Shown here in pieces: positions 39,906 through 58,036 of a stretch of DNA of 64,000 nucleotides (its first letter is position 1; each line of letters opens with the position of its first letter). A program made the position numbers and the translations under genes. Below the pieces are notes generated by a model. The model made no database searches. It saw only the letters and a program-made list of their open reading frames with translations, and was not told the DNA's origin. Origin of the DNA: Felixounavirus NRG857CP1; sequence record OZ035806.1. One strand, 5' to 3'.

Positions 39906-40691
39906 ATGGGTATTGTAAAAATCATCAATGGTGATATCTTTGCTGCATTTGATAAAGGTAAGTTTGACATCATTGGTCATGGTTGTAACTGCATGAACCT
40001 AATGGGCGCAGGTATCGCTGACAAGATTTCTAAACTTTACCCAAAAGCATATGAGACCGATACAGAAGTTTATCTCTATGCAGGTGGTATAGGTCACAAA
40101 CCCTGTGAGAATTTACTAGGTAATTTCTCTGTAGCACGCTTAAAACAAGGTCGTATAGCTAACCTTTACACTCAGCTTAAGACTGGTAAAGATGCCCGAT
40201 ACAGTGCTTTAGAGTCATCTTTGAAACAGCTTAACAGATACTGTGAAGTCAATCAGTTGAAGAAAGTTGGTTTACCTATGATTGGTGTAGGTATCGGTGG
40301 ACTTGACCCTCAAGCCGTCACAGTTATCATCAATCAGGTGATGAAGAGTGTAGATGTTTATCTATATGTCTATGAAGGAGAGATGTACCACAAGTTACTC
40401 TCAGGTTGGAAGAACTACTGTGAACCAGAATACTTTGCAGGTGTAGCAGTGTTCACAGATAACGCAGTTACCCTCTTCAGACGAAGAAAAGGTAAGATAC
40501 ATCAAAGTAACCCTCCGGTTGAAAAGATGTCTCTAAGTAACGCTCTAGTTACCCACCTGTCAAAGAGCAATCACAGAATTGCTGTAACATTTGGTAGTGA
40601 TGCAGAAGCTTATATCTATGCAAGAACTGATGAGGATATTGAGGCAATCTTCTCTTCACCAGAAGTTACCTTCTTAGACGCAAAGAACTAA
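39906..40691 (+). CDS. macro-domain (ADP-ribose binding/processing) protein
   Basis: N-terminal INGDIF...IIGHGCNCMNLMGAGIADKI resembles macro-domain Gly-rich ADP-ribose pocket. Confidence 0.5.
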   Translation: MGIVKIINGDIFAAFDKGKFDIIGHGCNCMNLMGAGIADKISKLYPKAYETDTEVYLYAGGIGHKPCENLLGNFSVARLKQGRIANLYTQLKTGKDARYSALESSLKQLNRYCEVNQLKKVGLPMIGVGIGGLDPQAVTVIINQVMKSVDVYLYVYEGEMYHKLLSGWKNYCEPEYFAGVAVFTDNAVTLFRRRKGKIHQSNPPVEKMSLSNALVTHLSKSNHRIAVTFGSDAEAYIYARTDEDIEAIFSSPEVTFLDAKN

Positions 40692-40739
40692 GAAACTCTG
40701 TAGGATATCCACAATAGCCTAAGCCTTTCTTATCTGGTA

Positions 40740-41010
40740 AATTTTTCAGGTAAGGAGGGCTTTTTCATTTCAGATTTGTGCAGGTAGATTTCTCTACAGA
40801 ACTCTATAGAGAAAATTTTGAACTCCAAAGAGAAAATTCATTTTCAAACTGTGCAGGTAATCTCCAAAGAGCTTTTTCATTTTCAAAACGTGCAGACCCC
40901 GCTCAGGTCGGGCAAGAAAAATCATTTTAGAATTGTGCAGGTAGGTTTTTATAGACAGCCAGCCCAACCCCTCTCCCCCTCTTACTCCCCCTCTCCCCAA
41001 AAGTCAAGAG
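40740..41010. repeat. iteron-like direct repeat cluster followed by C-rich tract
   Basis: four copies of TCATTTTCAAA-NN-TGTGCAGGTA at about 40761, 40836, 40874, 40918; then CCCCTCTCCCCCTCTTACTCCCCCTCTCCCC. Confidence 0.55.
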
Positions 41011-41119
41011 AAAAATTTGTAGCGGATTGAAAAATAATTCTTGATTTGCGTTCTGTTTTGTGGTAGTCGTGCGCACCCGTTTCATTACAGTTTTGCCAAA
41101 AATATTTTTAAAATTTTTA

Positions 41120-41211
41120 TTGACTCTTTGAACGTGGTTATCTAATATTTACATCAACGGGGAGGGAATGACCTTTCCCACTAAATAAAATCCTAAACTG
41201 GAGATTCAAAA
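41120..41211 (+). promoter_or_regulatory. class I early promoter-hairpin-RBS cassette
   Basis: TTGACT-17-TAATAT then CAACGGGGAGGGAATGACCTTTCCCACTAA hairpin and TAAACTGGAGATTCAAAAATG. Confidence 0.55.
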
Positions 41212-41400
41212 ATGGCATCAAGAAAAATTAAAGTTGGCGATGAGGTTAACATTAAGCACGAATACTCTTACAAAATGCTAACTATACGCTCTTATAAGGT
41301 TTATCAGGTGGAAGCTATCCACAAAGATAATACTTTTTCCTTAAAAGGGTATAGCGAACGTTTCCCTGCTGAACTCTTTGAGAAATGGAGCGCGAAATAA
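41212..41400 (+). CDS. small early-type protein
   Basis: 62 aa; preceded by class I cassette. Confidence 0.45.
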   Translation: MASRKIKVGDEVNIKHEYSYKMLTIRSYKVYQVEAIHKDNTFSLKGYSERFPAELFEKWSAK

Positions 41401-41606
41401 TGCTTTACAGTCGTGAATTGATGGTTACAACTAACGTTAACACAAAGGTAAAACGTTTTTACATGCAAATTTGTGGCGTATGGTCTAGAATATCAGAAGC
41501 TGACTATTGCAACTATGTAGAAACAGCTATAAACTCTAATTGCTACCTTACAAGAAATACTAAGAATTTTACAAGGCAAACAGCGATTTACTATTACGAT
41601 AAATAA
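41385..41606 (+). CDS. small hypothetical protein
   Basis: 73 aa; overlaps upstream gene; alternative Met at 41400. Confidence 0.35.
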   Translation: MEREIMLYSRELMVTTNVNTKVKRFYMQICGVWSRISEADYCNYVETAINSNCYLTRNTKNFTRQTAIYYYDK

Positions 41607-41696
41607 AAAGTACTTTACATGGGGCTTATAGTTCGATAAAGTAAGCCCCAGATAAAGAGCTTTACCAAATTAACCCTTAAACTAGGAGATTCAAAA
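41607..41696 (+). promoter_or_regulatory. class II promoter cassette with inverted repeat spanning the -10 region
   Basis: TTTACA-17-TAAAGT embedded in GGGGCTTA..TAAGCCCC, then AGATAAAGAGCTTTACC and TAAACTAGGAGATTCAAAAATG. Confidence 0.55.
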
Positions 41697-42077
41697 ATGG
41701 CATATCGTGCACCTAAATTCATCAACAAAGACAACTTTCGCAACGCACTGGAGAAGTCACTTGATGAAAATTTTAAAGGCAACATTATCGTTGTTCACGC
41801 ATTCAATTTTAAGTATGATGTAAACGGGAATAGAATCAACCATTACACGGCAACCATGTTAGATGGCACACTATCAAGTGAAAAAGCTGTACTGAATGCA
41901 CTTGCTGGACGTGGTAAAAACCTGATAAAATGCGATAAGAGACGTTATCAGGGTGGCGCATATGGTTATGATGATGCTATTTATCATCTTGAAAATATGG
42001 GCTATCAAGTAGAAAAAGCTGGAGCATCACAAATCATCGGCAGTGACGGCTATGTGACAATTTTCAAAATTAACTGA
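41697..42077 (+). CDS. small early-type protein
   Basis: 126 aa; preceded by class II cassette. Confidence 0.45.
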   Translation: MAYRAPKFINKDNFRNALEKSLDENFKGNIIVVHAFNFKYDVNGNRINHYTATMLDGTLSSEKAVLNALAGRGKNLIKCDKRRYQGGAYGYDDAIYHLENMGYQVEKAGASQIIGSDGYVTIFKIN

Positions 42078-42079
42078 TA

Positions 42080-42172
42080 AAGTACTTTACAAGGGGCTTA
42101 AAAGTTGGTATCTTAAGCCCCAGATAAAGAGCTTTACCACTAAATCAAGTCCTTAAACTAGGAGATTCAAAA
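42080..42172 (+). promoter_or_regulatory. class II promoter cassette
   Basis: TTTACA..GGGGCTTAAAAGTTGGTATCTTAAGCCCC..AGATAAAGAGCTTTACC..AGGAGATTCAAAAATG. Confidence 0.55.
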
Positions 42173-42685
42173 ATGAAAACTGTAGACGCTACCTTTGAAG
42201 TTGTAAAAGAAAAATTTTCCATCATTTACGAAGCTGTTAATTGCTACGAAGCAAGCCATAACCTTGATAATTGGGAATTTACAGATGACCATCAAGGCGG
42301 TGTGACTGTTAAAAATCCTAACTATCAGCATAATGCATTTAAATATGCAATCCCTTTGCATTACAGCCTTAAACAGCTTTCTAGTGACTATGCAAAACAA
42401 GGCCGGGAAAATCCATCAAAAGAGGCTTACGCAAGCTTACAGAAAGAACTAGAAAGAGATTTAGAGGCTTCAGAGTACAACCTTGCCGCGAAAGTTGTGG
42501 ATGCAAACGGTAACACGGTTTTAGAAAGTTTTTATCTTGGTTATGCTTTCGATTGGTGCTATCGTGACGGCGATGATTTAGAGGATAGACTAAAAGAAGA
42601 GGTGAACAATTCAGACGCAGAATCTGAAGTATTAGAACGTTTGGAATCACTAAAAGATTCAGTGATGAATATCTTTAAGAACTAA
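42173..42685 (+). CDS. early-type acidic protein
   Basis: 170 aa; preceded by class II cassette. Confidence 0.45.
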   Translation: MKTVDATFEVVKEKFSIIYEAVNCYEASHNLDNWEFTDDHQGGVTVKNPNYQHNAFKYAIPLHYSLKQLSSDYAKQGRENPSKEAYASLQKELERDLEASEYNLAAKVVDANGNTVLESFYLGYAFDWCYRDGDDLEDRLKEEVNNSDAESEVLERLESLKDSVMNIFKN

Positions 42686-42687
42686 AT

Positions 42688-42777
42688 AGATTTCTTTACA
42701 CGGGGTTATCAAGCTGGTAGGATAGCCCCAGATAAAGAGATTTATCAAATAAAGTCCTTAAACTAGGAGATTCTAAA
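42688..42777 (+). promoter_or_regulatory. class II promoter cassette (diverged copy)
   Basis: TTTACACGGGGTTATC..GGATAGCCCCAGATAAAGAGATTTATC..AGGAGATTCTAAAATG. Confidence 0.5.
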
Positions 42778-43074
42778 ATGAAATTATCAAATCAAGTGCG
42801 TGAAAATCTAAGCAAATTACTCAACAAAATTGATTTCATTGAAACATCAAGGAATAGTCATGATGTTATGGAATGGTTACACGGCAAAATAAAAGGCCGT
42901 CGTGTAGTGATTTGCTTATGGAACAGTTGCAGGGAGTATAAAAAACCTGTATTGCAAGTTAATATCTATGATGATACTTTTAAAAGTCCTGTAAAGTCTG
43001 AAAGTGATTTACTAGATTCTTATGAGATAACTGTAAATGGCAAAGTGTCACGTAAAGAGGAAGCACTATGTTAA
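42778..43074 (+). CDS. small early-type protein
   Basis: 98 aa; preceded by class II cassette. Confidence 0.45.
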   Translation: MKLSNQVRENLSKLLNKIDFIETSRNSHDVMEWLHGKIKGRRVVICLWNSCREYKKPVLQVNIYDDTFKSPVKSESDLLDSYEITVNGKVSRKEEALC

Positions 43075-43400
43075 TGATGGGTATCACTGCAATCATTGCT
43101 ATTATGGCGCTATATAAGGCGTACAGCGCCTACAATCTGGCAAGTAAGGCAATCACGCAACAGGTCAATAATAGCCTTGTAATGAGTTTTCTGGAGCGTT
43201 TAAGTGATGAACAAATAAAACGGTTAGAAATGAGCTTCAGATTTCAATCAAAAACTTATCAAATCAGCGACATTTTCAAAGATAATTTTCAGCTTGTCGA
43301 TGATTATAACTCTCTGATAAATGCTTTAAATATCAGCGACTTAAAAGACTATTACACTATAATTGTCCAAGAACTGAACAAACGAAAAAATTTCTCTTGA
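43068..43400 (+). CDS. small protein with N-terminal hydrophobic helix
   Basis: 110 aa; MLMMGITAIIAIMALY; overlaps upstream gene by 7 nt. Confidence 0.4.
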   Translation: MLMMGITAIIAIMALYKAYSAYNLASKAITQQVNNSLVMSFLERLSDEQIKRLEMSFRFQSKTYQISDIFKDNFQLVDDYNSLINALNISDLKDYYTIIVQELNKRKNFS

Positions 43401-43404
43401 TTTT

Positions 43405-43490
43405 AGTTTTAAAAACAAGTAAATTACTAATCAACGGGGAGGGAATGACCTTCCCCACTAAGTAAAGTCCTTAAACTAGGAGATTCAAAA
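43405..43490 (+). promoter_or_regulatory. class I promoter-hairpin-RBS cassette
   Basis: GTAAATTACTAATCAACGGGGAGGGAATGACCTTCCCCACTAAGTAAA..AGGAGATTCAAAAATG. Confidence 0.55.
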
Positions 43491-43763
43491 ATGTACACTA
43501 CTAACAACGGTCGCACCTTAAACGTAACCCTACGCCACTATGTGAACGGTGTAATGCACTTCGAGGATTTACAAGCTGAGCAACATATCTTAGATTGGCA
43601 AGTAGCAGGACTCCAAAAAACTGCTACGGGATACGGTAAAAAGATTCCAACCAGTTGGAAAGTACACTACGAAGGACGTTTGCGCAGAATTTATCAGGAT
43701 GTGCAAAGCAATAGCGCATCGAGTTACATTATAGTAAAAGGCAAAAAACTGCATTTAATGTAA
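43491..43763 (+). CDS. small early-type protein
   Basis: 90 aa; preceded by class I cassette. Confidence 0.45.
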   Translation: MYTTNNGRTLNVTLRHYVNGVMHFEDLQAEQHILDWQVAGLQKTATGYGKKIPTSWKVHYEGRLRRIYQDVQSNSASSYIIVKGKKLHLM

Positions 43764-43849
43764 AGTACTTTACATGGGGCTTGGAAGTTGATATCTTAAG
43801 CCCCAGATAAAGAGCTTTACCACTCAATCCTAAATTGGAGAACTTAAAA
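43764..43849 (+). promoter_or_regulatory. class II promoter cassette
   Basis: TTTACATGGGGCTTGGAAGTTGATATCTTAAGCCCCAGATAAAGAGCTTTACC. Confidence 0.55.
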
Positions 43850-44254
43850 ATGGCTATTAATAACCGTGAATTATCAATGTTAAAAGCACGTTTGACCGTT
43901 AATCGAATCAACATTATGACATCATCAGCGCCTGATGAGACATTGCACAACATTATCGGAAAGATTCAAAGCGTTATTTTAGACGTTGAAAACGTAAAAA
44001 GTTCATTGGCTGACGTTGCAGCAGGTATCACGCTAGACGGTGCGCAATATGAAATGTCCGACATGTTAGGCAAATCAAAGGTAATGAATAAAGAGCTTGA
44101 TTTAAAGATGTTCCGATTTGCTGTTAAAGTATGGCTATCCGTCGAGTATGACGCTAATTTTGCAATCGCTGATTTCTTTGCCACTTGGTTACAACGTAAT
44201 TTGACAAATCACGATTTTCGTGATGTCTGTGATGCAATTTATGCAGAACTCTAA
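43850..44254 (+). CDS. small early-type protein
   Basis: start set at Met after GGAGAACTTAAAA RBS (track ORF begins 43835). Confidence 0.45.
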   Translation: MAINNRELSMLKARLTVNRINIMTSSAPDETLHNIIGKIQSVILDVENVKSSLADVAAGITLDGAQYEMSDMLGKSKVMNKELDLKMFRFAVKVWLSVEYDANFAIADFFATWLQRNLTNHDFRDVCDAIYAEL

Positions 44255-44262
44255 AAAATTTT

Positions 44263-44355
44263 GTTGACACTGGTTTTTAGATAGATTAAATTACACATCA
44301 ACGGGGAGGGAATGACCTTCCCCACTAAATAAAGTCCTAAACTGGAGATTCTAAA
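44263..44355 (+). promoter_or_regulatory. class I promoter-hairpin-RBS cassette
   Basis: TTGACA-17-TAAATT, then CAACGGGGAGGGAATGACCTTCCCCACTAAATAAA..GGAGATTCTAAAATG. Confidence 0.6.
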
Positions 44356-44559
44356 ATGGCTATTATTAACGGTTTAACCATTGAAACTACACACATCAAA
44401 GATATCAAAGTTGGCGATATAGTCCTTTCCCACGGCGTAGAAAAAACTGTCACTGCAAAGGATATCAAAGAGGATTCTTTCATGGGTAGGACTCTTTTCG
44501 GTGATTCTTATTGCTTAGGTTACCTTGCAGTTTTAAAAGTTGTCAAAAATAACAAATAA
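44356..44559 (+). CDS. small early-type protein
   Basis: 67 aa; preceded by class I cassette. Confidence 0.45.
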   Translation: MAIINGLTIETTHIKDIKVGDIVLSHGVEKTVTAKDIKEDSFMGRTLFGDSYCLGYLAVLKVVKNNK

Positions 44560-44561
44560 AG

Positions 44562-44643
44562 TACTTTACAAGGGGCTTATAAGTCTGTAAAGTAAGCCCC
44601 AGATAAAGAGCTTTACACAATCCTTAAACTAGGAGATTAAAAA
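44562..44643 (+). promoter_or_regulatory. class II promoter cassette
   Basis: TTTACAAGGGGCTTATAAGTCTGTAAAGTAAGCCCCAGATAAAGAGCTTTAC..AGGAGATTAAAAAATG. Confidence 0.55.
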
Positions 44644-45186
44644 ATGAAATGCTATCACGGAACTACTCAAGAAAATTTCCTCAACCTGATTAATAACGGT
44701 GATAAACCATCAGGCGCATGGAATTGTTCGGATATGGACGGCAATTTTTACGTGTATCCAGAAAATAAAATCTATGGCGACGATGAGGAAGAAATAGCAT
44801 CAGAGGGCATTCAGCAAGCTCTAGGCAATGCCACTATCACCGCAGCTTTTCAGATGAAGACTCAAAATATTGTTATCTTAGAACTCGATATTCCAGAGGA
44901 TGAGCTAAATGATGATTATTCTTGTGATAATATGTCGAGTGTAGCAAGTTTTACAGAGTACTTTGATGTAAATTGGATTAAAAAGGTCTATACAACAGAG
45001 TTTAACGCTATGTATTCACCTTTTTGTCTTCCTTCATTGGATAACCCAAATTTAAACTATCTTGATGAGTCTCTGGAGCTTCTTGCTAAAAGTGTTCAAC
45101 AGTCGGACAGTATTCAGGTTTTTTGTGACATCATGGATACACTGACAGGAAACATTGCAGAAGAGGATTTAAAGAGCTTTTTCTAA
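44644..45186 (+). CDS. early-type acidic protein
   Basis: 180 aa; preceded by class II cassette; followed by hairpin AGCCCC..GGGGCT. Confidence 0.45.
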   Translation: MKCYHGTTQENFLNLINNGDKPSGAWNCSDMDGNFYVYPENKIYGDDEEEIASEGIQQALGNATITAAFQMKTQNIVILELDIPEDELNDDYSCDNMSSVASFTEYFDVNWIKKVYTTEFNAMYSPFCLPSLDNPNLNYLDESLELLAKSVQQSDSIQVFCDIMDTLTGNIAEEDLKSFF

Positions 45187-45212
45187 AAACCTATGCAATC
45201 ACCTTATAAACA

Positions 45213-45238
45213 CTAATCAGCCCCTTGTAGGGGCTTTT
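45213..45238 (+). terminator. terminator-like hairpin
   Basis: CAGCCCC-TTGTA-GGGGCTTTT. Confidence 0.45.
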
Positions 45239-45252
45239 AGAGGGCTTAAATC

Positions 45253-45486
45253 ATGCTTACAACCATTTACCTCATCCTTTCCATCTGTAATGGTCATTCA
45301 TGTGATTTTAAAGGGCTTGAAGAGTTTACAGGAAGTAAAGAAAATGCTATTCAAGTTTGCCAGATAGCAAGACAAGACTATCCCGCTAGTGATGATATAC
45401 AATGTTACTTTAAGACAGAAGATGAAGACGGTATCTATTTTGACAGCGTAGATGGTCAGTATGAAATTATCATTGAAAAAGACTAG
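45253..45486 (+). CDS. small protein with signal-like N-terminus
   Basis: 77 aa; MLTTIYLILSICNGHSC. Confidence 0.35.
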   Translation: MLTTIYLILSICNGHSCDFKGLEEFTGSKENAIQVCQIARQDYPASDDIQCYFKTEDEDGIYFDSVDGQYEIIIEKD

Positions 45487-45489
45487 ACA

Positions 45490-45577
45490 AGCCTGATAAA
45501 AATCTGTAAATTGTCAATCAACGGGGAGGGAATGACCTTCCCCACTAAGTACAATCCTTAAACTAGGAGATTCAAAA
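45490..45577 (+). promoter_or_regulatory. class I promoter-hairpin-RBS cassette
   Basis: GTAAATTGTCAATCAACGGGGAGGGAATGACCTTCCCCACTAAGTACAA..AGGAGATTCAAAAATG. Confidence 0.55.
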
Positions 45578-45919
45578 ATGGCTTATGTAACCGTAATTAC
45601 CGATAAAGAAAATTCATCTTGGTCAACTCAAGTAAGTGATAAGATGTCACCTATGCAGTGCCTAAAATACTTTGAACAGTGGAACAAAGGCGAGGACACA
45701 AGCCCCTTTCAAGTGATGCAGATTATCCATGTAGATAACGAAGGGAATAAAACGGTTTTAAATAGTGAGTACTACGCAAGCCGTTTTGAAACGAGAAGTA
45801 AAACAATGAAGCTTTTACGTGAATCCGGTTACTCCCATATCGCCGCGCTAATCTGGGATGACCTGCTAAAAAACCAACGTATCAGCTATGTAAAACCTGA
45901 AAAAATATTCATCAGTTAA
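45578..45919 (+). CDS. small early-type protein
   Basis: 113 aa; preceded by class I cassette. Confidence 0.45.
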   Translation: MAYVTVITDKENSSWSTQVSDKMSPMQCLKYFEQWNKGEDTSPFQVMQIIHVDNEGNKTVLNSEYYASRFETRSKTMKLLRESGYSHIAALIWDDLLKNQRISYVKPEKIFIS

Positions 45920-46059
45920 TCAATAACTTACAAAAAACTTTTAAAAAAAATGTTGACAATACCCCTTGACATTGGTAACTTTGTTCGAGGGGGTTTATCT
46001 AAAAGGGATTCACTTAAAAGATTCTTTATAGATAAGCTCAAAAAATTACTTGCAATCAG

Positions 46060-46142
46060 CTATCAAAACAAGTAAATTACTAATCAACGGGGAGGGAATG
46101 ACCTTCCCCACTAAGTAAAATCCTTAAACTAGGAGAGTCAAA
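46060..46142 (+). promoter_or_regulatory. class I promoter-hairpin-RBS cassette
   Basis: AAGTAAATTACTAATCAACGGGGAGGGAATGACCTTCCCCACTAAGTAAAA..AGGAGAGTCAAAATG. Confidence 0.55.
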
Positions 46143-46673
46143 ATGAACAAGTTTAAAGCTATCAACTTCATTCGTTCAAATGCTGTAATGTCTAAGCCTG
46201 TAAAAGATACATATGAATTTCGTTGTAATGGGGTACACTTTGCAACCATCACTAAGTCAGAAAACGGGGCTTATTATGTACATCGTCGTAATGTTGCAAC
46301 CGTTGTAGTCTCTCACTTTATGCAAGCTGTAGCGGAATTATTACCGTTATTCTTAGAGATTTACTTAGATGAGTGTAAAAACGTTCACAACCACGTTAAA
46401 AACCTTTTAAACGGTTATAAAATGGCTTATGAACGTTCTATCAAGTCACTAAACAAGTTTTACAATGCACCTGCAAATACTGTTTCAATGGCTTATGATG
46501 TAAACGGTGAGTTAGTTAGTCTCTTTAAAGTGGAAGAAATTAAACTGTATAATCTACGTCCTAGTGGTTACTCTAAGACTCTTGGTGAAGGTTTAACGTT
46601 CAATATCAAGAACTTAGAAAAAACTTTAAAAGATATTGAAAAAGATATTGACGAGACACTTAAAAGTCTGTAA
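46143..46673 (+). CDS. early-type protein
   Basis: 176 aa; preceded by class I cassette. Confidence 0.45.
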   Translation: MNKFKAINFIRSNAVMSKPVKDTYEFRCNGVHFATITKSENGAYYVHRRNVATVVVSHFMQAVAELLPLFLEIYLDECKNVHNHVKNLLNGYKMAYERSIKSLNKFYNAPANTVSMAYDVNGELVSLFKVEEIKLYNLRPSGYSKTLGEGLTFNIKNLEKTLKDIEKDIDETLKSL

Positions 46674-46741
46674 ATTGTCAATCAACGGGGAGGGAATGAC
46701 CTTCCCCACTAAATAAAACCCTTAAACTAGGAGATTCAAAA
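46655..46741 (+). promoter_or_regulatory. class I promoter-hairpin-RBS cassette
   Basis: GTAAATTGTCAATCAACGGGGAGGGAATGACCTTCCCCACTAAATAAAA..AGGAGATTCAAAAATG. Confidence 0.55.
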
Positions 46742-46990
46742 ATGGCAACTATCCGCGCTACTGTTAACGAGTTCGGTTTTTCTTCTCTGGATGTTAAATT
46801 TGACATTGCAGGCACTGATAACGCCTTTGAAATGGTGAAATGTCTTATCAGTCAGACCATCAAAGATTATAATCCTTCGGATGAGTTCTGGGAGGAAACA
46901 AAACAAGAAGTTCTCAAGGATGGTTATACTTATCACTATTGGGGAGAAAAAATCGTCTCCCTGTACTACAACAAACAAGATTATAACTAA
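46742..46990 (+). CDS. small early-type protein
   Basis: 82 aa; preceded by class I cassette; last gene of plus-strand block. Confidence 0.45.
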   Translation: MATIRATVNEFGFSSLDVKFDIAGTDNAFEMVKCLISQTIKDYNPSDEFWEETKQEVLKDGYTYHYWGEKIVSLYYNKQDYN

Positions 46991-47029
46991 TCGACGCAGC
47001 GGGGCTATTTAGCCCCAGATACCTGAACA

Positions 47030-47055
47030 GCCCCTTAAAATGGGGCTTTTTTACG
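47030..47055 (+). terminator. intrinsic terminator closing the plus-strand block
   Basis: CAGCCCC-TTAAAAT-GGGGCTTTTTT. Confidence 0.6.
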
Positions 47056-47059
47056 TCTA

Positions 47060-48660
47060 TGTAATAGCCTCTATTCAATCCTTTTCCTTTCCTTTCCAGA
47101 ATCTATCCCACTGATTCAATAGAATCTTATCAGACCTTAAAAGCAATAACTCTATAGTCTACTCTATAACCTCTTATCAAATCAACTTAAATAAAAGCCA
47201 ATAACCCCAGAAAGGGGATGGCCCATTTAAACGCTCTATAAAGCTCTATAACAGCCTTATCAACCTAACTTAAGGGATTGCATTAACTCACCCTTAAAAA
47301 CCCTTTATAAAGCTTCTCAGAGCCTTAAAAGAATCTTATAAGGGTGTAAGCTTTATCATCTCATTAGTATTCTTGTGAATAACTAAACAACCCCTTGATA
47401 GTCACTAAAAAGTATGTTATAGGGGGCTTTAAAGTTACTTTGAAGTAGCTTAAAAGTTACGTAAAAGAGGTTATAAAGTTACGTAAATGCTAGCCCCCTT
47501 AACATTTTCTTAACAATTTCTTAACAAACCCTACATAGTTATGCTTTTAAGGCACTTGTTAGCAACTTGTTAGCCCCTTGTTAAATCTCTGTTAAGACCA
47601 TGTAAAAGCCTTGTAAGAGTCTTTGACATAGCCTTTAAAGCTCCTGTAAAGCTCTATAAAGAGGTGTTTGTACAGTTGGGGGGTAAATACTAGGAAGAGG
47701 CTTAAAAGGGCTTACAAGGAGCTATAGAGAGCTTTTAAGAGGTATGTTTAGAGAATCACTAAGAAAGAGAGGGAACGATAAGAAAAGAGTAGTGACCATG
47801 TTAATAGCTTGTTAAAAAGATTAAACACTTGTTAAAAACTTGTTAATTATCTTAACAAAATAACTCTTAAAAATTAACTTGTTAGCTCTTGTTAGTCATC
47901 TGTTAAGATTCTGTAAAGCCCATGTATCAACTGTTAAGAAACTGTTAAGCCCTTGTTAGCTCTGTTAAGAATCTGTTAAGACCTTTGAAGAGTTGTTAAG
48001 AAGATGTTAGAACTGTTGAGAGATTGTTAATGATATTTTAAAATTTTGCAAAGTACTTGTAAGGGAGCTGTTAAGGGCTACCAAGCAGATATACATCTTC
48101 TACAGATATTTTTGAGTTCCTTCAAAGACCCTAAAAAAATGACTTGATATTCCTATTTTATAAAAATTTTAAAATTCTGAATAATTACCTATACAGTCTT
48201 TTAAAAATACAGGCATAAACAGGCTTATAAGATACCTTGTTAGTACCGTGTTAGACCTTGTGAGATAAGGTCTGTAAAGATATTCCTGTTAAGTTTGTTA
48301 AAACAGTCTATATAGAGGCTTAGTAATACCTAGTGAACACCTATAGAGGGTAACATAGCTGACATAATGGGTTACTGTTAAGTAACACAGATAACCTAGA
48401 GATTAAGAGGTGTATAGGGGGCTTCTAAGAGGGTATAGAGAGATGGTTAAGGTGATTGTATAGGCTGTTAAGAAGGCTTGTTAGAAGAGTGTTTAGAAGG
48501 GCTATACAGAGGGGCTATTAAGACCACTAGATAGTTACTAAGATACTATATAGTACTATATAACTATATATAGAGAGTAAGCTTAAGAAGGTTGTTAAGA
48601 AGGGTAGATATTTTATTCACATATGATGGTGACCCAGAGGTTGGGACAACCGATGAAATT
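47060..48660. repeat. 1.6-kb non-coding, repeat-dense region between convergent gene blocks
   Basis: no ORF of 60 aa or more; dozens of (C)TTGTTA(A/G)(G/C) boxes, densest about 47500..48020 with roughly 10-11 bp spacing; also CTCTATA and AAGTTAC repeat families. Confidence 0.6.
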
Positions 48661-48664
48661 TTAT

Positions 48665-48690
48665 AAAAATTAAAAAGCCCCCAATTAAGG
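48665..48690 (-). terminator. terminator-like hairpin for the minus-strand block
   Basis: minus-strand reading GCCTCC..GGGGGC followed by T-run. Confidence 0.35.
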
Positions 48691-48706
48691 AGGCTCTTAA
48701 GATATT

Positions 48707-49312
48707 TTAAATCAGTGTTTCCAGAACTGTCTTCAGTGATGACTTGGTTGTCTGATAAAAATGAGTAAATCCATTGTTGTTATCGAATACCTGCATCATG
48801 ATATCATCTCCCTTGATTGGGTACACTCGGATATCATAGTGGAATCCATTAAAGATAGCAGAGCCATTACAGAATGAACTAAAGTCATCAACTGAGATGT
48901 ACTCTTCGTGACCTGTGATTTTTATACAGACACCTTTACTCGGTCTCTTAGGGTTGATATCTTCCATGATAGACATGCTCTGTCCACCAAGAGATACCAT
49001 AGTGACCACTTTACGGTTCTTCTGTTTAAAGTACATCTTAACTTTCTGTAAAGTGTCTTCATAGAACGGATAAGACCTTTCTACAAAGATTCCTTCAAGT
49101 GGCTCTTTACCATTTTCAACTTCTCTGTTATGCCGTACTGCAAAGATAATTTGTTGGAACCAGTCAAGATTTTCTTCGGAGAGTGCTTCCCGAATATCAT
49201 TCCAGTCAAGGACTAGGTAGTTGCCTTCAACATCTTTTAAGTTATCTTTTTCCATATCTATCACACCATTATCGTAAAACTTGGTAGTCTGGTACTGCAA
49301 ACTTGTTGTCAT
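48707..49312 (-). CDS. hypothetical protein
   Basis: 201 aa ORF. Confidence 0.4.
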   Translation of the reverse strand: MTTSLQYQTTKFYDNGVIDMEKDNLKDVEGNYLVLDWNDIREALSEENLDWFQQIIFAVRHNREVENGKEPLEGIFVERSYPFYEDTLQKVKMYFKQKNRKVVTMVSLGGQSMSIMEDINPKRPSKGVCIKITGHEEYISVDDFSSFCNGSAIFNGFHYDIRVYPIKGDDIMMQVFDNNNGFTHFYQTTKSSLKTVLETLI

Positions 49313-49733
49313 TGTTTTTAATGAGGTCTTCTTCTGTTACTAAGAATGTAAGACCACACAAGTGTGTATAGCGGCTATCATACTCAAATATTTTAAGTAA
49401 GTATTTACCATCATGATAGACAGATTCTACTACACCTTTTGCAACAATCTTTCCGGTCTTGAAGTCTTTAAGACGGTATACATTACCAACTTTAGGGACT
49501 GTTTTCACTTCAGGTTCTTTTAGCTTCTCACCAACTTCTACATCACCTAGTAAGTGAGAACTTTCAAACGCTACATATTGCATATAAGCTTCTGAGCATT
49601 CCCAGATAAAACAATGTACAAGAACCTTAGCAGCATGTCTTGAACAGCTCAACTTATCACAAATCTCTTTGTACATCTCATCTTTAGTTGAGTTGTCAAG
49701 CATTGCTTTTTGGACTACTTCTTTAATTTTCAT
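49269..49733 (-). CDS. hypothetical protein
   Basis: 154 aa ORF. Confidence 0.4.
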   Translation of the reverse strand: MKIKEVVQKAMLDNSTKDEMYKEICDKLSCSRHAAKVLVHCFIWECSEAYMQYVAFESSHLLGDVEVGEKLKEPEVKTVPKVGNVYRLKDFKTGKIVAKGVVESVYHDGKYLLKIFEYDSRYTHLCGLTFLVTEEDLIKNNDNKFAVPDYQVLR

Positions 49734-49785
49734 TTCGCTACCTTCTAAGTTTCTACAAAGGGGCTATCAAGTAACCCCTAAGTTA

Positions 49786-50010
49786 TTACTCAGACTTTTC
49801 AGTCTTCTTATCGGATTTCTTACTAGTCTTCTTCTCAGCTTTCTGTTCAGGCTCCTTCTCAGAAGTTGCCTTAATAACCATATCAAGAAGCTCTGATAAG
49901 TCACTCTTCAGCAAAGTAACAGGCTGCTCGTTGTAGAAGTTTTTGTCAAGATAAACTTTGAACTCTTCTATAGAAGGAAATCCAAAAATTGGTACAGGTG
50001 TCTTAATCAT
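49786..50010 (-). CDS. small protein with lysine-rich C-terminal tail
   Basis: 74 aa; C-terminus EKEPEQKAEKKTSKKSDKKTEKSE. Confidence 0.35.
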   Translation of the reverse strand: MIKTPVPIFGFPSIEEFKVYLDKNFYNEQPVTLLKSDLSELLDMVIKATSEKEPEQKAEKKTSKKSDKKTEKSE

Positions 50011-50086
50011 TACTTAGTTTCTCCATAGGCATCTTTTAAGATTGCCTTGTTAATCATTTCAGCGATTGCAAAACGAACACATACAG

Positions 50087-50620
50087 CTATAATTGTAGGT
50101 TGCATTCTTTACTTACCTCTTCAAGTTTAACCTCAGAGTCCTTGAGTCGTTTCTTATGAACTCTGAATCTCATTAGTGCGATGATGATACCAACTAAAGG
50201 GACAGCATACAAGTACCAAACATCATATACCTTTGCAGTAATCTGTGTAATGGTTAAGTCTTGAGCTATGGAACTGATTGCTGATACGGCTAGTAATGTT
50301 GCTAGGAAAAATGCCAGTACCATGACAATACTTAAACAACCTCTGGCATGGTGTTCATGCTTAATGCACTTATTCTTTTCGTCAACAACCCTGTTGTAGT
50401 CGTTTGTAAAGTCTCTGTAGAAAGCTTTCAAGTATTCTTTATTGTAGCCTTCAAAGCAACCTGTACCGTACCAATAATCACCACCAAAATGTGCTATGAT
50501 ACCAGTATCTCCATTTGGTTTTGTTACTCTTAGGGAAGTATGATGGCGAGTATCCTGATAATCTATCTTGTATCTTTCTTCGTAAATCATTTTCCAACCC
50601 CTCTCAATCGTTTGTTCCAC
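50087..50620 (-). CDS. hypothetical membrane protein
   Basis: 177 aa; two hydrophobic helices in C-terminal half. Confidence 0.4.
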   Translation of the reverse strand: MEQTIERGWKMIYEERYKIDYQDTRHHTSLRVTKPNGDTGIIAHFGGDYWYGTGCFEGYNKEYLKAFYRDFTNDYNRVVDEKNKCIKHEHHARGCLSIVMVLAFFLATLLAVSAISSIAQDLTITQITAKVYDVWYLYAVPLVGIIIALMRFRVHKKRLKDSEVKLEEVSKECNLQL

Positions 50621-50820
50621 TCAAGGTCAACAAGTCTTTGCAGGACTTTCCCTCTAGGTGTTACACCTTTTAAGTCTGCATCGTAGCAACGGTAAAAGTC
50701 ACCTTCAGCGTGTTTACCATAGCATTTTCTGATATTCTGACTTCTACGGTATTGTTCTAATAGAGACAGTCTGTAGTAATCTTCAACTGTAGTTAGTTTT
50801 TTCATTCTTTCACCACGCAT
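50587..50820 (-). CDS. hypothetical small protein
   Basis: 77 aa ORF. Confidence 0.3.
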   Translation of the reverse strand: MRGERMKKLTTVEDYYRLSLLEQYRRSQNIRKCYGKHAEGDFYRCYDADLKGVTPRGKVLQRLVDLEWNKRLRGVGK

Positions 50821-50888
50821 CTTCTTAAGAAACTAAAAAGGGAACTACCTCTCGATAGCCCCCATCATAGTTAACATTGTATATTTGG

Positions 50889-51470
50889 TCAAGAGTATTT
50901 TTTAGGCAGTAATGCGCTTCTCTTGTTACTCTCTTCACTCAATAGTGCGATAAAATCGTCACCTTTGCCTTTCCACGGGCTGAATGAAGGGATATGTTCA
51001 CGAATAGCCTCAATAACCGTCTTAAGTGCTGTATTTTTCATCCACCAGTCAGAATCTGCTGATGCTACAACATAGTACCCGCCATCATCAGTAAGGATTG
51101 GCTCTGAGATACATGGTGAAATCAGAGTGGTGATGATTGAACCATTGTTCATATAGTATGTACGCTTCATAACCTTTTCAAGAAGCTTGTGAAGGTCACC
51201 AAACAGTGTTACAAGCTCTTTGTGGTCAATGTCTTTTTCGAGATTTGCTCGATACTTCAAAAGTGCAGCATCAACTTCTCTGTCATTAAACTTGAAGTAC
51301 TGAACTTCCTCAACAAGACAAACACTGATGTTGTTAACATTCATAGTCAACTTGCAAACTTTTGCAGGAGAATTGATATTTGGTTGAAAAAGTGCAATAC
51401 ACCCTTCAATGTTTCCAAAATGTTGTACTAATGTCACTTGTGGAGTGATACTCTGTTGCTCTTCGGACAT
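50889..51470 (-). CDS. hypothetical protein
   Basis: 193 aa ORF. Confidence 0.4.
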   Translation of the reverse strand: MSEEQQSITPQVTLVQHFGNIEGCIALFQPNINSPAKVCKLTMNVNNISVCLVEEVQYFKFNDREVDAALLKYRANLEKDIDHKELVTLFGDLHKLLEKVMKRTYYMNNGSIITTLISPCISEPILTDDGGYYVVASADSDWWMKNTALKTVIEAIREHIPSFSPWKGKGDDFIALLSEESNKRSALLPKKYS

Positions 51471-51814
51471 TACAGTTTCCTCATTAAATACTTTTTAAGT
51501 TGTGTGTTAGGTTTCTCAAAAACTTCTATAGAAGATATCTTAACAGATTCACCACGCATACCTGTGTGTTTGAATATATAGTACTCTAACATCCCTATAT
51601 ACTTTGCTGGTAAGTCATGCTTGACATACACCGTTACAGAGTCTTCAAACTCAACAACCTTTGTACCATCTTTGTAGTTAAACTCTTTAGGATGGTCGTA
51701 GTTGTCGATATCGTACATTAAAAAGAGTCTTTTCCGTTGCATGTCAAGCTTATTGGTTAAAGACTCTTTGATGTCTGAGAAGTTTTTGTACACTGTGACA
51801 TGGAGCTTACTCAT
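51470..51814 (-). CDS. hypothetical protein
   Basis: 114 aa ORF, 1-nt overlap with neighbour. Confidence 0.4.
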   Translation of the reverse strand: MSKLHVTVYKNFSDIKESLTNKLDMQRKRLFLMYDIDNYDHPKEFNYKDGTKVVEFEDSVTVYVKHDLPAKYIGMLEYYIFKHTGMRGESVKISSIEVFEKPNTQLKKYLMRKL

Positions 51815-52100
51815 CGTTAAACTCTCTGACGAAGAAATAGTTGACTTTGTTATTACCTACCATAAGGTCAAAGCAGGTGTTCTCAAAAGGTTTGTTGTAG
51901 GCATCATATGACGTGTACGTATCAGCTACTTGTTTGGTATTGAGCTTTTTACTTGATGGATTTAAGAGGCCACCGTATAGTTTCTTGATAGCCTCTTCTA
52001 CAACAGACCAGATAATTTCGTCAGTAATTTCTTCGTACAGGTCAAGTTCACGCTCTAGTGAGAAGTCACAAATTGGGAAAATAACCTGTACTTTACTCAT
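51807..52100 (-). CDS. hypothetical protein
   Basis: 97 aa ORF. Confidence 0.35.
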   Translation of the reverse strand: MSKVQVIFPICDFSLERELDLYEEITDEIIWSVVEEAIKKLYGGLLNPSSKKLNTKQVADTYTSYDAYNKPFENTCFDLMVGNNKVNYFFVREFNDE

Positions 52101-52504
52101 TAACGAATAACCTGTGTGACTTGAATTGCTTCAGTTACGGACAATTCACCTACTTTCTCTTCTTTGATAAAAGTGAAGGTGAGTTCAACAGGTTCTTCTT
52201 CTTCTTCTTCTTGCTCAACTGGAACACCATTAAGCTCATCAAAGATTGATTTGGTTGTCCAGTCTTCACCACCATCTGGGTAGTGGATTGCGTAGAGAGG
52301 GAACTCCCTGTCAAACCAACCAAATACAGGGCAGCCATCTTCATCATCTCGCATTCGATGAAGGGTGCTTCCAGACCCTGTAAAACGAAGGAATAAATCT
52401 CCGTTGCACTTGAATATTACTGCGTCGGCAAAACCAATGTCTTCTCGACCATCATGGCCAAACGTGTCTACCTTTACTTGAATATCTCTAACATCTTTAT
52501 TCAT
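52100..52504 (-). CDS. hypothetical protein with acidic EEEEEE linker
   Basis: 134 aa ORF. Confidence 0.4.
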   Translation of the reverse strand: MNKDVRDIQVKVDTFGHDGREDIGFADAVIFKCNGDLFLRFTGSGSTLHRMRDDEDGCPVFGWFDREFPLYAIHYPDGGEDWTTKSIFDELNGVPVEQEEEEEEPVELTFTFIKEEKVGELSVTEAIQVTQVIR

Positions 52505-52895
52505 AAAAACCTCTCTCTGCTTGTTCGATTTTCGCTTTTAGAACTTCACACCGTTCAATGTGATATCTGGCTTCATGCTCATGTGTCGCCAAAGTTCTTT
52601 CAAGAATGGTTTTATAGTAACCTGCAAGCTGCTCTCTTGTCAATGGGTTCTCTGAAATAATATCAAGGCCACTTTCACCTAGAGTATTAAATTGTCCATG
52701 CTCATTTACATGGTAAGTCTCAAATTTGAATAAACCGTTATTAGCAGCCTCAATAGGTGAGAGTTCAACCAACTCAACGGTGAACATTGTATGTACCCTA
52801 TCACCAACTGTAACAATGTTACTTCCAATGATGCGTACAAGCGAACCATTACGAGTGTACTTAAAAGTCCCAAAGTCACTAGCCCAAAGCTTCAT
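52497..52895 (-). CDS. hypothetical protein
   Basis: 132 aa ORF. Confidence 0.4.
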   Translation of the reverse strand: MKLWASDFGTFKYTRNGSLVRIIGSNIVTVGDRVHTMFTVELVELSPIEAANNGLFKFETYHVNEHGQFNTLGESGLDIISENPLTREQLAGYYKTILERTLATHEHEARYHIERCEVLKAKIEQAERGFYE

Positions 52896-52904
52896 AATTT
52901 TCTC

Positions 52905-52935
52905 CTTAGAAAATAAAAAAGGCTCCCGAAGGAGC
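52905..52935 (-). terminator. intrinsic terminator downstream of lysozyme gene (minus strand)
   Basis: plus-strand AAAAAAGGCTCCCGAAGGAGCC = minus-strand GGCTCCTTCGGGAGCCTTTTTT. Confidence 0.55.
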
Positions 52936-52946
52936 CTATGAAGATA

Positions 52947-53411
52947 TTACTTTGGGTATACACTGTCAAGATAAATGTCAGCTTCCATTCTACGTCTGTT
53001 TTTCAGACCGTTTGAAGTGACCTTCTTACCCTTAACTGTAACCTTGTTCCACCACTGCATAGCTTCTGCACAACCTACCTTATTACCAGCATTGTGTCGC
53101 TTGATAAATGTAGAATCCTGCATAGCTGTGATACCGATGTTGTATGTTTCACTTACAAGTGCATCGAACTCATTCTGAGAAGTTGGAACCTTGATAGCTT
53201 TATTCACTGCTGCAACGAACTTCTCAACATCTGCAAGAAGATACTGTTCAGCTTGTTCGGCAGTAATTTTCATACCCATCTTAACAGGTTTTCCGTCAAT
53301 ACGGATTGTACCATACCCGATTGTCGGGATTCCGGCAGAGTCTTCGTAAGCCTCTAACTTCAGACCTTCAAAGAACTTAATAGCTTCTAGACCTTTTCTT
53401 GAGAGTTGCAT
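52947..53411 (-). CDS. lysozyme (T4 e-type, GH24-like endolysin)
   Basis: FEGLKLEAYEDSAGIPTIGYGT Glu-Asp-Thr catalytic triad spacing typical of T4 lysozyme family. Confidence 0.85.
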   Translation of the reverse strand: MQLSRKGLEAIKFFEGLKLEAYEDSAGIPTIGYGTIRIDGKPVKMGMKITAEQAEQYLLADVEKFVAAVNKAIKVPTSQNEFDALVSETYNIGITAMQDSTFIKRHNAGNKVGCAEAMQWWNKVTVKGKKVTSNGLKNRRRMEADIYLDSVYPK

Positions 53412-54292
53412 TATGCCTCCCCTGCTGGGTTAACTGTAACCGTTGCTGCATTAGATGTTACAGAGCCACCTGCGCCAGTAACTACACAGGTGTAGCTTCC
53501 TGCATCAGCAGTGGTTGCACCTTCTTTGGTGTAAGTTGCAGCAGTTGCATCGAGGATGTCTTCCTCACCTTTCTTCCATTGGTAACCTGTCGCACCTGTT
53601 GCCACAACATTCAGCGTTAAGGTCTCACCTTCAGTGATTTCTTGATTGGTTGGCTGTTGAGTGATAACTGGTAAAGCTTTCACAGTAACGGTTGCAGGGC
53701 TAGAAGTGACAGAACCACCTGCACCTGTTACAACGCAAGTGTATGAACCAGCATCAGAAGGTGCTACAGACTGTTTTGTGTAGGTTGCAGATGTGGCGCT
53801 AGTGATATTCTCACCATCCTTTTTCCATTGATATCCAGTGGCATTAGTTGCAATAATGCTTAGGGTAAGTGTACCACCTTCATTTACTGTTTGATTGGTT
53901 GGTTGCTGAGTAATTGATGGTGGCTTGATAGCATCCTTCAACTTAGCATTCAACATTGAGAATGGTTTAACTCTTGCCAACCATTCACAATAAACTGTAT
54001 CAACGTCTTTACCATTGATAATTGCATATTGTAAGTCCATGAAGAAGTCAGAGGTTCTCATTTGAGCACCAATGCTGTAAAGCAACTCATCACTAAATGG
54101 AACTTTGTAGTCTGGTTTGTAGTCAAACTCATCGACTTCTGCAATATCAGCTTCAGGCCAATACGAACTGTAGGTAAGCGGTAAAATAGCCTCTTGATAT
54201 GTTCTAAAATCATATCTCTTACCAGCCTTTACGTTTGCAATGAAGCCCTTCACAAACTCTTTGAAGTCTGGGTAAGTCTTTGCTTTAATCAT
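53411..54292 (-). CDS. protein with two tandem Ig-like repeats fused to a conserved N-terminal domain
   Basis: two about 80 aa repeats ITQQPTNQ..GYQWKK..GSYTCVVTGAGGSVTS..ATVTV; N-terminal 120 aa paralogous to 54289..54660. Confidence 0.5.
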   Translation of the reverse strand: MIKAKTYPDFKEFVKGFIANVKAGKRYDFRTYQEAILPLTYSSYWPEADIAEVDEFDYKPDYKVPFSDELLYSIGAQMRTSDFFMDLQYAIINGKDVDTVYCEWLARVKPFSMLNAKLKDAIKPPSITQQPTNQTVNEGGTLTLSIIATNATGYQWKKDGENITSATSATYTKQSVAPSDAGSYTCVVTGAGGSVTSSPATVTVKALPVITQQPTNQEITEGETLTLNVVATGATGYQWKKGEEDILDATAATYTKEGATTADAGSYTCVVTGAGGSVTSNAATVTVNPAGEA

Positions 54293-54660
54293 TTCTTTTT
54301 AGCCTCTAAATGTGCGTTTAGTCTAAAATAACCTTTGTGATGCGGAGATACGTCACCAACAACAATACCTTTAACCTTATAACCTTTACCAATTACATAC
54401 TGGATATCCATAAGGAATCTTCCAAGACCAACAATATGGAACATTGGATATAATAGATTCTCAGAGTCTGGAATATTGATTTCGGGTTTGTAGGTTCGAT
54501 GTTCGATTGTTGGTGTAATATCTTCTTCAGGCCATTTGCTGAGTCTCCATGTCAAAGGTGTTGGGATAACATCATTAAGGCTGTACCTTTCACCATTTTG
54601 CACGGAATTGACATAGGATTGTAGGAAGCAATAAAAGTCTTTTGCACTCTTAGCTTCCAT
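54289..54660 (-). CDS. paralog of the N-terminal domain of the Ig-like protein
   Basis: shared pattern DF..F...V..V..G.RY...WPE.DI...LLY...FMD.QY.I..G with downstream gene. Confidence 0.4.
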   Translation of the reverse strand: MEAKSAKDFYCFLQSYVNSVQNGERYSLNDVIPTPLTWRLSKWPEEDITPTIEHRTYKPEINIPDSENLLYPMFHIVGLGRFLMDIQYVIGKGYKVKGIVVGDVSPHHKGYFRLNAHLEAKKK

Positions 54661-54707
54661 TAAATATCCTTATAAATAGTTAAAGGGGCATCAGCCCCTA
54701 TTCACAC

Positions 54708-55298: not shown

Positions 55299-55525
55299 TT
55301 TTCAGTTCTCCTGCGATTTATAATTTTGCTGCAATAGAGAAACGAAGTAAACTCACTGGAAGAAACCATTAAGTGTTGTTCACTAGATTGAGCCATTGCC
55401 CTGAAATACATTCCAGTCAAAGCATCATAGTGACTATTCTTTCCAATTGAGGTTATATAGCCATGACTCTTTGCAGTTTGATATAAATCTATAATATCTG
55501 CGATTTCTAATTGGGAACTACACAT
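55292..55525 (-). CDS. hypothetical small protein
   Basis: 77 aa ORF. Confidence 0.3.
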   Translation of the reverse strand: MCSSQLEIADIIDLYQTAKSHGYITSIGKNSHYDALTGMYFRAMAQSSEQHLMVSSSEFTSFLYCSKIINRRRTEKC

Positions 55526-55689
55526 AGATAATCCTCTTGTCTTCTGTAATTTTGAAAGAACAGGTACAGACCAATTTCAGAGGATGAATAGTAGAGTAAC
55601 TCTACCCTTTTTGATTCCTTACAGTGATTGGTATTTTTACCTTTCTTCGGGTTGTTTGATTTTCTCATTAAGTCTCCTTTGTAGAACAA
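55507..55689 (-). CDS. hypothetical small basic protein (uncertain)
   Basis: 60 aa ORF, first of minus block. Confidence 0.25.
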   Translation of the reverse strand: MFYKGDLMRKSNNPKKGKNTNHCKESKRVELLYYSSSEIGLYLFFQNYRRQEDYLCVVPN

Positions 55690-58029: not shown

Positions 58030-58036
58030 AATTAAT

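Follow-up and report, generated by a model that had tools for sequence, protein, structure and literature searches.

In Felixounavirus NRG857CP1 a non-coding gap separates a macro-domain gene from the first of the small early genes, and it carries an array of four direct repeats that, judged from its sequence, is a cis-acting DNA element, neither a gene nor a structured RNA. The array was studied in a stretch of 64,000 nucleotides of this phage (sequence record OZ035806.1, hereafter the window), in which the motif TCATTTY-N2-A-N3-GTGCA occurs in four copies, all on the + strand, starting at positions 40765, 40838, 40877 and 40922; it takes up ~250 non-coding bases, with start-to-start distances of 73, 39 and 45 bp. 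We consider it probable that the array serves, at the DNA level, as a docking site for a sequence-specific DNA-binding protein, because the repeats are direct and asymmetric and form a single array per genome, because the silent DNA that they occupy has a terminator on one side and a promoter on the other, and because they are conserved beyond the neighbouring proteins. By analogy with known origins, the initiation of replication is the leading, still tentative, candidate for its function, and to the full explanation, a protein-bound array that marks a replication origin, we assign a probability of about one in three.

Four direct repeats in a silent gap

The preliminary description of this region, made from the sequence alone, had reported four imperfect direct copies and a polypyrimidine tract in a non-coding gap just before the first strong promoter, and the present analysis recovered each of these features. 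The four copies were found on the + strand with the spacing given above; the gap (40692-41211, 520 bp) contains no conserved open reading frame (ORF); the tract was located at 40958-40999 and is C-rich on the + strand (27 C and 2 G in 43 nt); and the promoter is a strong sigma-70-type early promoter, TTGACT-17-TAATAT (41120-41148, + strand), conserved in relatives, which drives the first small gene (41212-41400).

The cores of the four sites are TCATTTCAGATTTGTGCAGGTA (site 1, 40765-40786), TCATTTTCAAACTGTGCAGGTA (site 2, 40838-40859), TCATTTTCAAAACGTGCAGACC (site 3, 40877-40898, degenerate at its 3′ end) and TCATTTTAGAATTGTGCAGGTA (site 4, 40922-40943), all on the + strand. Each unit is built of a short G/C-containing box, then five A or T residues, and then the invariant core, in the same orientation throughout, so that unit 2 (40820-40859) reads GAACTCCAAAGAG + AAAAT + TCATTTTCAAACTGTGCAGGTA, unit 3 (40860-40898) ATCTCCAAAGAG + CTTTT + TCATTTTCAAAACGTGCAGACC and unit 4 (40913-40943) CAAG + AAAAA + TCATTTTAGAATTGTGCAGGTA, whereas site 1 with its left part (40760-40786) reads CTTTTT-TCATTTCAGATTTGTGCAGGTA. 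The units are 37-45 bp long and 71-82% alike, and the five-base block to the left of the core alternates between AAAAA and TTTTT from unit to unit. The AAAGAG(C)TTTTTCAT elements, which had been described as separate repeats interleaved with the first family, are actually the left part of the same 37-45-bp unit, and the "second" repeat AAAGAGCTTTTTCAT is likewise its left portion. Between sites 1 and 2 a decayed unit (40789-40819) contains two copies of the near-palindrome TCTNTANAGA, and between sites 3 and 4 there is a small, lineage-specific GC hairpin, CCCG..CGGG (40898-40912), the position of which is occupied in relatives by GAGAAAAATCAGGTC or by a further CTCCAAAGGG box.

Chance cannot account for these repeats. 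The 22-mer, with at most three mismatches allowed, was found twice, against 0.00 expected from shuffled sequences, and GTGCAGGTA occurs three times in the 64 kb, every time in the array, against 0.37 expected. Furthermore, the relaxed pattern CATTT-N5-8-GTGCA has four matches in the full 84,421-bp record OZ035796.1 of Felixounavirus NRG857CP1, all of them in the array and on one strand. This uniqueness fits a cis site present once per genome, and not a class of promoters or operators; a promoter or operator class reused elsewhere in the genome was ruled out by the absence of the motif outside the array.

The gap contains the intrinsic terminator of the upstream operon, detected by a terminator scan at 40721-40772 on the + strand, which has a 17-bp stem, a loop and a TTTTTCATTT tail. 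Site 1 overlaps this T-tail, so that the tail doubles as the left part of the site. The pairing of the stem is kept despite base changes (GCCCTCC..GGAGGGC in Sf13, GGCTGCC..GGCGGCC in phiWec174), and since the stem uses G-U pairs the terminator would act in + strand RNA only. Between the stop codon of the macro gene and the terminator there is, in addition, a near-consensus DnaA box (40705-40713; ATATCCACA here, ATATTCACA in most relatives), which is kept in the Felix and Susp types and is not found in Sf13 or in the Erwinia phages.

The array is conserved where the neighbouring proteins have diverged

The preliminary description had named an absence of the repeats from related phages as a result that would speak against it. 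The search was run on 29 IMG/VR loci found via the macro protein and on GenBank relatives, and the repeats proved to be strongly conserved. When the gap sequences of wV8, Felix O1, mistaenkt (Suspvirus), Sf13 (Mooglevirus) and phiEa21-4 (Kolesnikvirus) were aligned, TCATTT and TTGTGCA were invariant at each site, and the linkers changed. The four sites are spaced 73-77, 39-41 and 45 bp apart in Felixounavirus, Suspvirus and Mooglevirus, and four sites with a regular period of 37, 37 and 39 bp are present in the Erwinia Kolesnikvirus. From the regular period in the Erwinia phages the ancestral form is reconstructed as a tandem array of five units of ~38 bp, one of which, between sites 1 and 2, has decayed in the Felix-type phages; the decayed unit corresponds to site b of the Erwinia phages, which is intact there as a full site within the 37-bp period.

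The most distant instance came from a pattern scan of IMG/VR. In an 88-kb contig (L066), the macro protein of which is 37% identical, TCATTTYAAWWWYGTGSATWG occurs four to five times directly after the macro gene. The core and the spacing of the array are preserved across at least five lineages, with three to five copies among the relatives (phiWec174-type phages are without site 2), and in every lineage, L066 included, the array is flanked by the macro gene on the left and by the first early promoter on the right. The core is invariant where the flanking proteins have diverged to 37-70% identity, and the linkers vary. When the window was compared with phiEa21-4, the array was among the few pieces in 3 kb of synteny that could be aligned at the nucleotide level, and it is the most conserved non-coding sequence that we noticed in the region. 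After GTGCA, phages of the Felix, Susp and Moogle types have the four bases GGTA, and Kolesnikvirus and L066 have TAGG or TAGA. As these bases are lineage-specific though the hosts are all Enterobacterales, the protein that reads the array is more likely to be encoded by the phage than by the host. L066 also has, between its array and its first early promoter (5600-5770 of the reverse complement), ~170 bp dense in TTAACA/TTAACAT repeats, a family absent from the Felix-type phages.

Pattern scans of IMG/VR and of metagenomes detected no array outside Ounavirinae-like contigs. The other matches of these scans were chance matches in Ala/Ser-rich coding repeats and in an AT-rich satellite on an unrelated metagenome contig (L104), where a 45-bp tandem repeat at 2007-2214 (4.7 copies) contains TCATTTCACAAATGTGCAA; this resemblance to the motif is probably due to chance, in satellite-like, AT-rich DNA of little coding capacity. 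No homology of the array to host or plasmid DNA was observed among 5,426 Escherichia coli genomes and 72,556 plasmids.

The genome paper of Felix O1 lists direct repeats of at least 24 bp, among which the present array does not figure, and states that temporal regulation is unknown (PMC3185647). In the searchable literature we found no description of the array, of an origin or of transcription start sites for Felix O1-like phages, and the array appears to have been undescribed so far. Felix O1 and its relatives have long been used in diagnostics and biocontrol, and one of them, Bas63, is now a model for engineering; to our knowledge, neither an origin of replication nor a recognition site for packaging nor a temporal switch of transcription has been mapped in this group. 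A unique and conserved array is therefore a concrete target for finding its protein reader, the start of replication and the insulation of the early block.

The array is neither a gene nor a structured RNA

As the spacings of 39 and 45 bp are divisible by three, open frames traverse sites 2-4 on either strand, and small ORFs have been annotated across the array in several GenBank records. These annotations conflict, i.e., wV8 gene 13 is on the + strand, and mistaenkt_18, Sf13 gp58 and the ORFs of Panisse and Coenus are on the - strand, and they are probably spurious. The stop-to-stop frames over the array differ between genera, sites 1 and 2 are always out of frame, and indels break the frame (a 2-nt deletion between sites 3 and 4 in wV8, insertions of 2 and 4 nt in Mooglevirus). 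In addition, no start codon with a ribosome-binding site was found at the array. A set of protein-coding repeats (HFQxVQV on the + strand, M..LH.LK on the - strand) was ruled out by this frame inconsistency and by the indels. We regard it as very improbable that the array is either a real small ORF, such as wV8 gene 13, mistaenkt_18 or Sf13 gp58, for which the frames open through sites 2-4 would speak but which should have been kept between genera with indels in multiples of three, or a non-functional relic, preserved by chance and derived by tandem duplication of the 3′ arm and T-tail of the terminator. The relic would explain why the 3′ arm and tail of the terminator, CAGGTAAGGAGGGCTTTTTCATTT, resemble the junction between units, CAGGTAATCTCCAAAGAGCTTTTTCATTTT; however, a neutral relic would not persist with invariant cores and varying linkers beside proteins that share 37-70% identity.

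An element that works as RNA was also considered, namely a transcript with several binding sites that would act as sponge or decoy and titrate an RNA-binding protein or a nuclease, like the type III antitoxin RNAs and the phage pseudo-antitoxins. Such an unstructured RNA with repeated protein-binding motifs may arise by read-through from the upstream operon, or as an antisense RNA from a weak promoter-like motif on the - strand at 41007-40979. The units all lie on one strand, and the repeat lengths of type III antitoxins take in 37-45 nt, so that tandem direct repeats of ~36-45 nt on one strand of a phage intergenic region are a feature shared with ToxI and pseudo-ToxI. In L066 no clear terminator was seen by eye between the macro gene and the array, which would imply co-transcription there, and the - strand motif (TTGACT-17-TAnnnN) keeps its exact 17-nt spacer in the Felix, Susp and Moogle types and would make a better promoter in the VpaE1 type (TGnTAGCCT). 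Against these points, no Rfam family matched the array, either at the gathering thresholds or at E values up to 10, and no covariance model for ToxI matched it. Neither strand folded better than dinucleotide shuffles (z scores of -0.86 for the + strand and +0.67 for the - strand), the terminator being the sole convincing RNA structure in the gap. The repeats are imperfect and irregularly spaced, with units merely 71-82% alike, and unlike in ToxI the strong terminator stands before the array rather than after it, with no promoter between the two and no known cognate toxin. No sigma-70 promoter within the repeats passed the scan on either strand, nor was one found by manual inspection, and the - strand motif likewise fails the consensus promoter scan. 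Furthermore, a flip from A5 to T5 would alter an RNA completely, and the alternation of these blocks, natural where DNA shape is read and awkward where RNA sequence is read, is easier to reconcile with the former. An RNA-level element is, hence, unlikely.

The array as a candidate origin of replication

The preliminary description had proposed a replication origin or a binding array for a phage regulator. The part of this proposal that fits the evidence is the protein-bound array, for which the single locus, the non-coding position, the lack of an RNA signal and the invariance of core and spacing argue; the origin is its tentative part. In the explanation that we favour, a sequence-specific DNA-binding protein would occupy the four cores as monomers in tandem, so that one nucleoprotein complex per genome would be formed just downstream of the terminator of the long replication/rII/lysis operon, with ~180-350 bp between it and the first early promoter downstream. 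This complex would mark a replication origin that lies ~7 kb (8%) inside the right physical end of the linear genome, and the G/C-skewed tract, with its G-quadruplex-prone strand and a possible R-loop, may help strand opening or priming.

An origin is favoured as the function by general precedent and by a T7-like replisome (a PolA-type polymerase and a fused primase-helicase) with an origin that would lie near one end. Direct repeats beside a strand-asymmetric tract, in silent DNA enclosed by a terminator and a promoter, have an origin-like layout, and T7 has its origin near one end of a genome with direct terminal repeats. When the array was compared with iteron-type origins (lambda ori, SPP1 oriL, T4 oriE and plasmid oriV/oriR), asymmetric cores of ~20 bp in the same orientation at a single non-coding locus, conserved while the linkers drift, were the common features. 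An asymmetric site of 17-22 bp, repeated directly at least three times with a single orientation, characterizes such origins, and four cores of 18-22 nt are present here on the + strand. The differences are a unit of 37-45 bp, in place of ~22 bp, a G/C-skewed tract where an AT-rich element is expected, and the lack of a recognisable initiator gene, of an outstanding AT-rich unwinding element and of a cluster of DnaA boxes. The second class of origins considered was that of the R-loop or G-quadruplex type (ColE1 RNA II, mitochondrial CSB II, T4 oriF/oriG), which also have a tract with purine/pyrimidine asymmetry; here a leftward promoter-like motif would give rise to the G-rich strand as a transcript, but this putative motif is weak, and several relatives that bear the array have the tract flipped to the other strand or not at all. 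The array would be a well-delimited protein-binding repeat array of a familiar kind, in which the unit length is unusual and the G-quadruplex-prone neighbour is notable.

The tract contains a canonical G-quadruplex motif (four runs of at least three G with loops of 1-7 nt) at 40968-40998 on the - strand, GGGGAGAGGGGGAGTAAGAGGGGGAGAGGGG, which is the only one predicted from sequence in the window. The C tract is kept in window-type Felixounavirus, in Suspvirus and in Mooglevirus, VpaE1-type relatives have a stretch that is G-rich on the + strand in its place, and phiWec174-type and Erwinia phages are without a canonical G-quadruplex motif; by this comparison the C tract is a frequent, not an obligatory, companion of the array.

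Several observations weigh against an origin at this locus. The spacing of 21-24 bp expected of classical iterons was not found, the distances being 73, 39 and 45 bp here and 37, 37 and 39 bp in the Erwinia phages, i.e., a unit of 37-45 bp that is about twice the classical period. No initiator-like or DNA-binding domain was recognised in the flanking genes by Pfam (only the Macro domain upstream), and a scan of nine of the small proteins encoded downstream gave no Pfam match and only PHROGs of unknown function, although a novel initiator may be among them. The nearest easily melted DNA, at 41079-41120 (z of 2.4-2.7), does not rank with the 15 least stable regions in the window; the least stable of all are 10373-10500 and the terminal-repeat area, both of which are competing candidate sites for an origin. 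Boxes for DnaA (TTATNCACA, at most one mismatch) are not enriched, with 3 in the 40-42 kb interval and 94 in the 64 kb, and the GC skew follows the direction of transcription only, with no signal of an origin. Replisomes of the T7 type start from transcripts and not from iteron-bound initiators, and the relatives of the VpaE1, phiWec174 and Erwinia types, which lack the G-quadruplex tract, indicate that the tract would not be essential to the function of the array. Finally, we found no experimental replication, binding or transcription data for the region in the searchable literature.

The units were also compared with the sites of IHF, Fis, CRP, OmpR, the UP element, CsrA and boxA; some partial likeness, to the UP element and to OmpR half-sites, is not relied on.

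A possible boundary or regulatory array

Nearly as likely as an origin, though itself tentative, is a role in transcription, with a phage protein bound at the four sites. Such a protein could reinforce the terminator, as a roadblock or an insulator, and keep transcription of the long upstream operon out of the early block, or it could act from a distance on the cluster of early promoters 180-350 bp downstream, as a switch that turns them off or raises their output; in addition, the C-rich RNA made by read-through would serve as a loading site for Rho. The position of the array argues for this alternative, because the repeats start inside the tail of the terminator and stop upstream of the first early promoter, and because the place between the macro gene and that promoter is kept down to L066. 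The base composition of the C tract on the + strand would also suit a Rho utilisation site, which is difficult to fit to VpaE1-type phages, where the tract is G-rich on that strand. Operators, however, usually overlap their promoter, and the sites lie at least 180 bp upstream of the -35 box; a regulator usually has more targets, and the motif is absent from the near-identical early cassettes and from the rest of the genome.

The same alternative would gain from the highly conserved non-coding block that the alignment of relatives revealed at 41000-41075, which looks like two weak divergent promoters. The - strand motif consists of TTGACT (41007-41002) and TAAGAG (40984-40979), and the + strand motif of TTGATT (41041-41046) and TAGTCG (41064-41069), each with an exact 17-nt spacer. 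Neither motif passed the consensus promoter scan, as the second hexamer ends in G and not in T.

The array lies near, not at, the genome end

A genome terminus or a concatemer junction was ruled out, as the terminal repeat of relatives lies 6.5 kb to the right of the array. A direct terminal repeat of 581 bp was determined in Pr103Blw by PhageTerm (PMC8303462), and one of 608 bp in UAB_Phi87 by Bal31 digestion and run-off sequencing (PMC4837284). The 581-bp repeat of Pr103Blw maps to 47493-48074 of the window, and in many records oriented by the ends the array is 6-7.6 kb from the right end; from these two observations the array is placed ~7 kb (8% of the genome) inside the right physical end. 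The terminal-repeat match with its right flank (47493-48600) is among the most AT-rich DNA of the window, and rightward and leftward genes converge there, so that at either end of the genome the genes are transcribed outward.

Adapter read-through and a fold-back artefact account for the accumulation of record and contig ends at the C tract. Independent assemblies break recurrently in or beside the tract, as in the ends of three contigs (L010, L011 and L032), the starts of MN850610.1 (Andreotti) and ON210138.1 (EC106) and the end of MT446388.1 (TH10). Two IMG contigs end at the identical base inside the tract, and one of them continues into the Nextera adapter; the Andreotti record ends at the edge of the tract in a fold-back chimera, which is annotated as a repeat_region; EC106 begins ~30 bp from the array, and TH10 and one more contig end just past the tract. 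The G-quadruplex-prone tract is thus a recurrent false "genome end" in Felixounavirus records and could be mistaken for a terminus.

The distance from the end invites a comparison with the injection stop signal (iss) of phage T5. An entry-pause element of that kind would bound the first-entering ~8% of the genome and halt or pace the entry of the DNA until the small early genes have been expressed, and, provided that the right end enters first, it would suit an array at ~7 kb from the right end, at the inner edge of ~17 small genes with strong host-type promoters. In T5, too, the signal is a region of repeats that is untranslated and conserved; it is 7.9% from the end (bioRxiv 10.1101/866236) and borders, on the inner side, the early host-takeover genes, which are transcribed toward that end. 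There, as in the present phage, the non-coding DNA is better conserved than the genes beside it. In the Erwinia phages the cores read CTATGCACA, which matches the DnaA box at 8 of its 9 positions. In contrast, the cores of the present phage (ACCTGCACA) match at 6 of 9, without enrichment of DnaA boxes, and the T5 region is far larger (1.2-1.7 kb within a 10-kb terminal repeat) and dominated by inverted repeats, with palindromes and eight paired DnaA boxes, whereas the array has 250 bp of direct repeats and a 0.6-kb terminal repeat 6.5 kb away. Two-step entry of Felix O1-like phages was not reported in the literature searched. In T5 the A1 protein is large, and no ORF of more than 180 aa is present between 41212 and 47000, a comparison of size in which homology to A1/A2 was not searched directly. 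An entry pause is, hence, quite improbable. Slightly less so, yet unlikely as well, is a cis control point ~8% from the right end that would be either an origin with an iteron-bound protein and a G-quadruplex/R-loop tract or a T5-like entry pause; if true, the array would be the first essential element of the Ounavirinae to be mapped in non-coding DNA, and a new family of DNA-binding proteins would come with it.

Genome setting and other observations

The region of the window is 100% identical to OZ035796.1 and 90-98% identical to the same region of many Felix O1-like coliphages and Salmonella phages. The window is ~2.66 kb longer than the corresponding part of OZ035796.1, with the first 40 kb identical and the same last base, and the difference is an insertion or deletion within ~40000-60000 of the window. 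The PolA-type DNA polymerase gene (7545-10274, - strand) is followed by genes for the primase-helicase, nucleotide metabolism, NAMPT, rIIA and rIIB, and then by those for a polynucleotide kinase and spanins. The polymerase gene and the operon with the primase-helicase gene diverge from a gap (10275-10502) that is the least stable DNA of the window and a competing candidate for the origin. This gap is much more AT-rich than the surroundings of the array, and carries ACTTAA(AA) repeats and a 27-nt near-palindrome. The macro-domain "phosphatase" gene (39906-40691) is directly upstream of the gap, ~17 small genes without a known function, each under a promoter of its own, extend from 41212 to ~47000, and a cluster of 25 tRNA genes occupies 57953-63585.

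Promoter cassettes are repeated between the small early genes (41586-41700, 42066-42178, 42680-42784, 43747-43859 and others), with a GC hairpin, GGGGCTTA..TAAGCCCC, placed between the -35 and -10 boxes. They match the published 57-bp direct repeats of Felix O1 and the DR features of wV8, and the motif AAAGAGCTTT is common to these cassettes and to the units of the array. The record GU169904.1 (Staphylococcus phage SA1, 147 kb) contains at 127995-129979 DNA that is 91-97% identical to the present Felixounavirus region, and is probably a chimeric or contaminated record.

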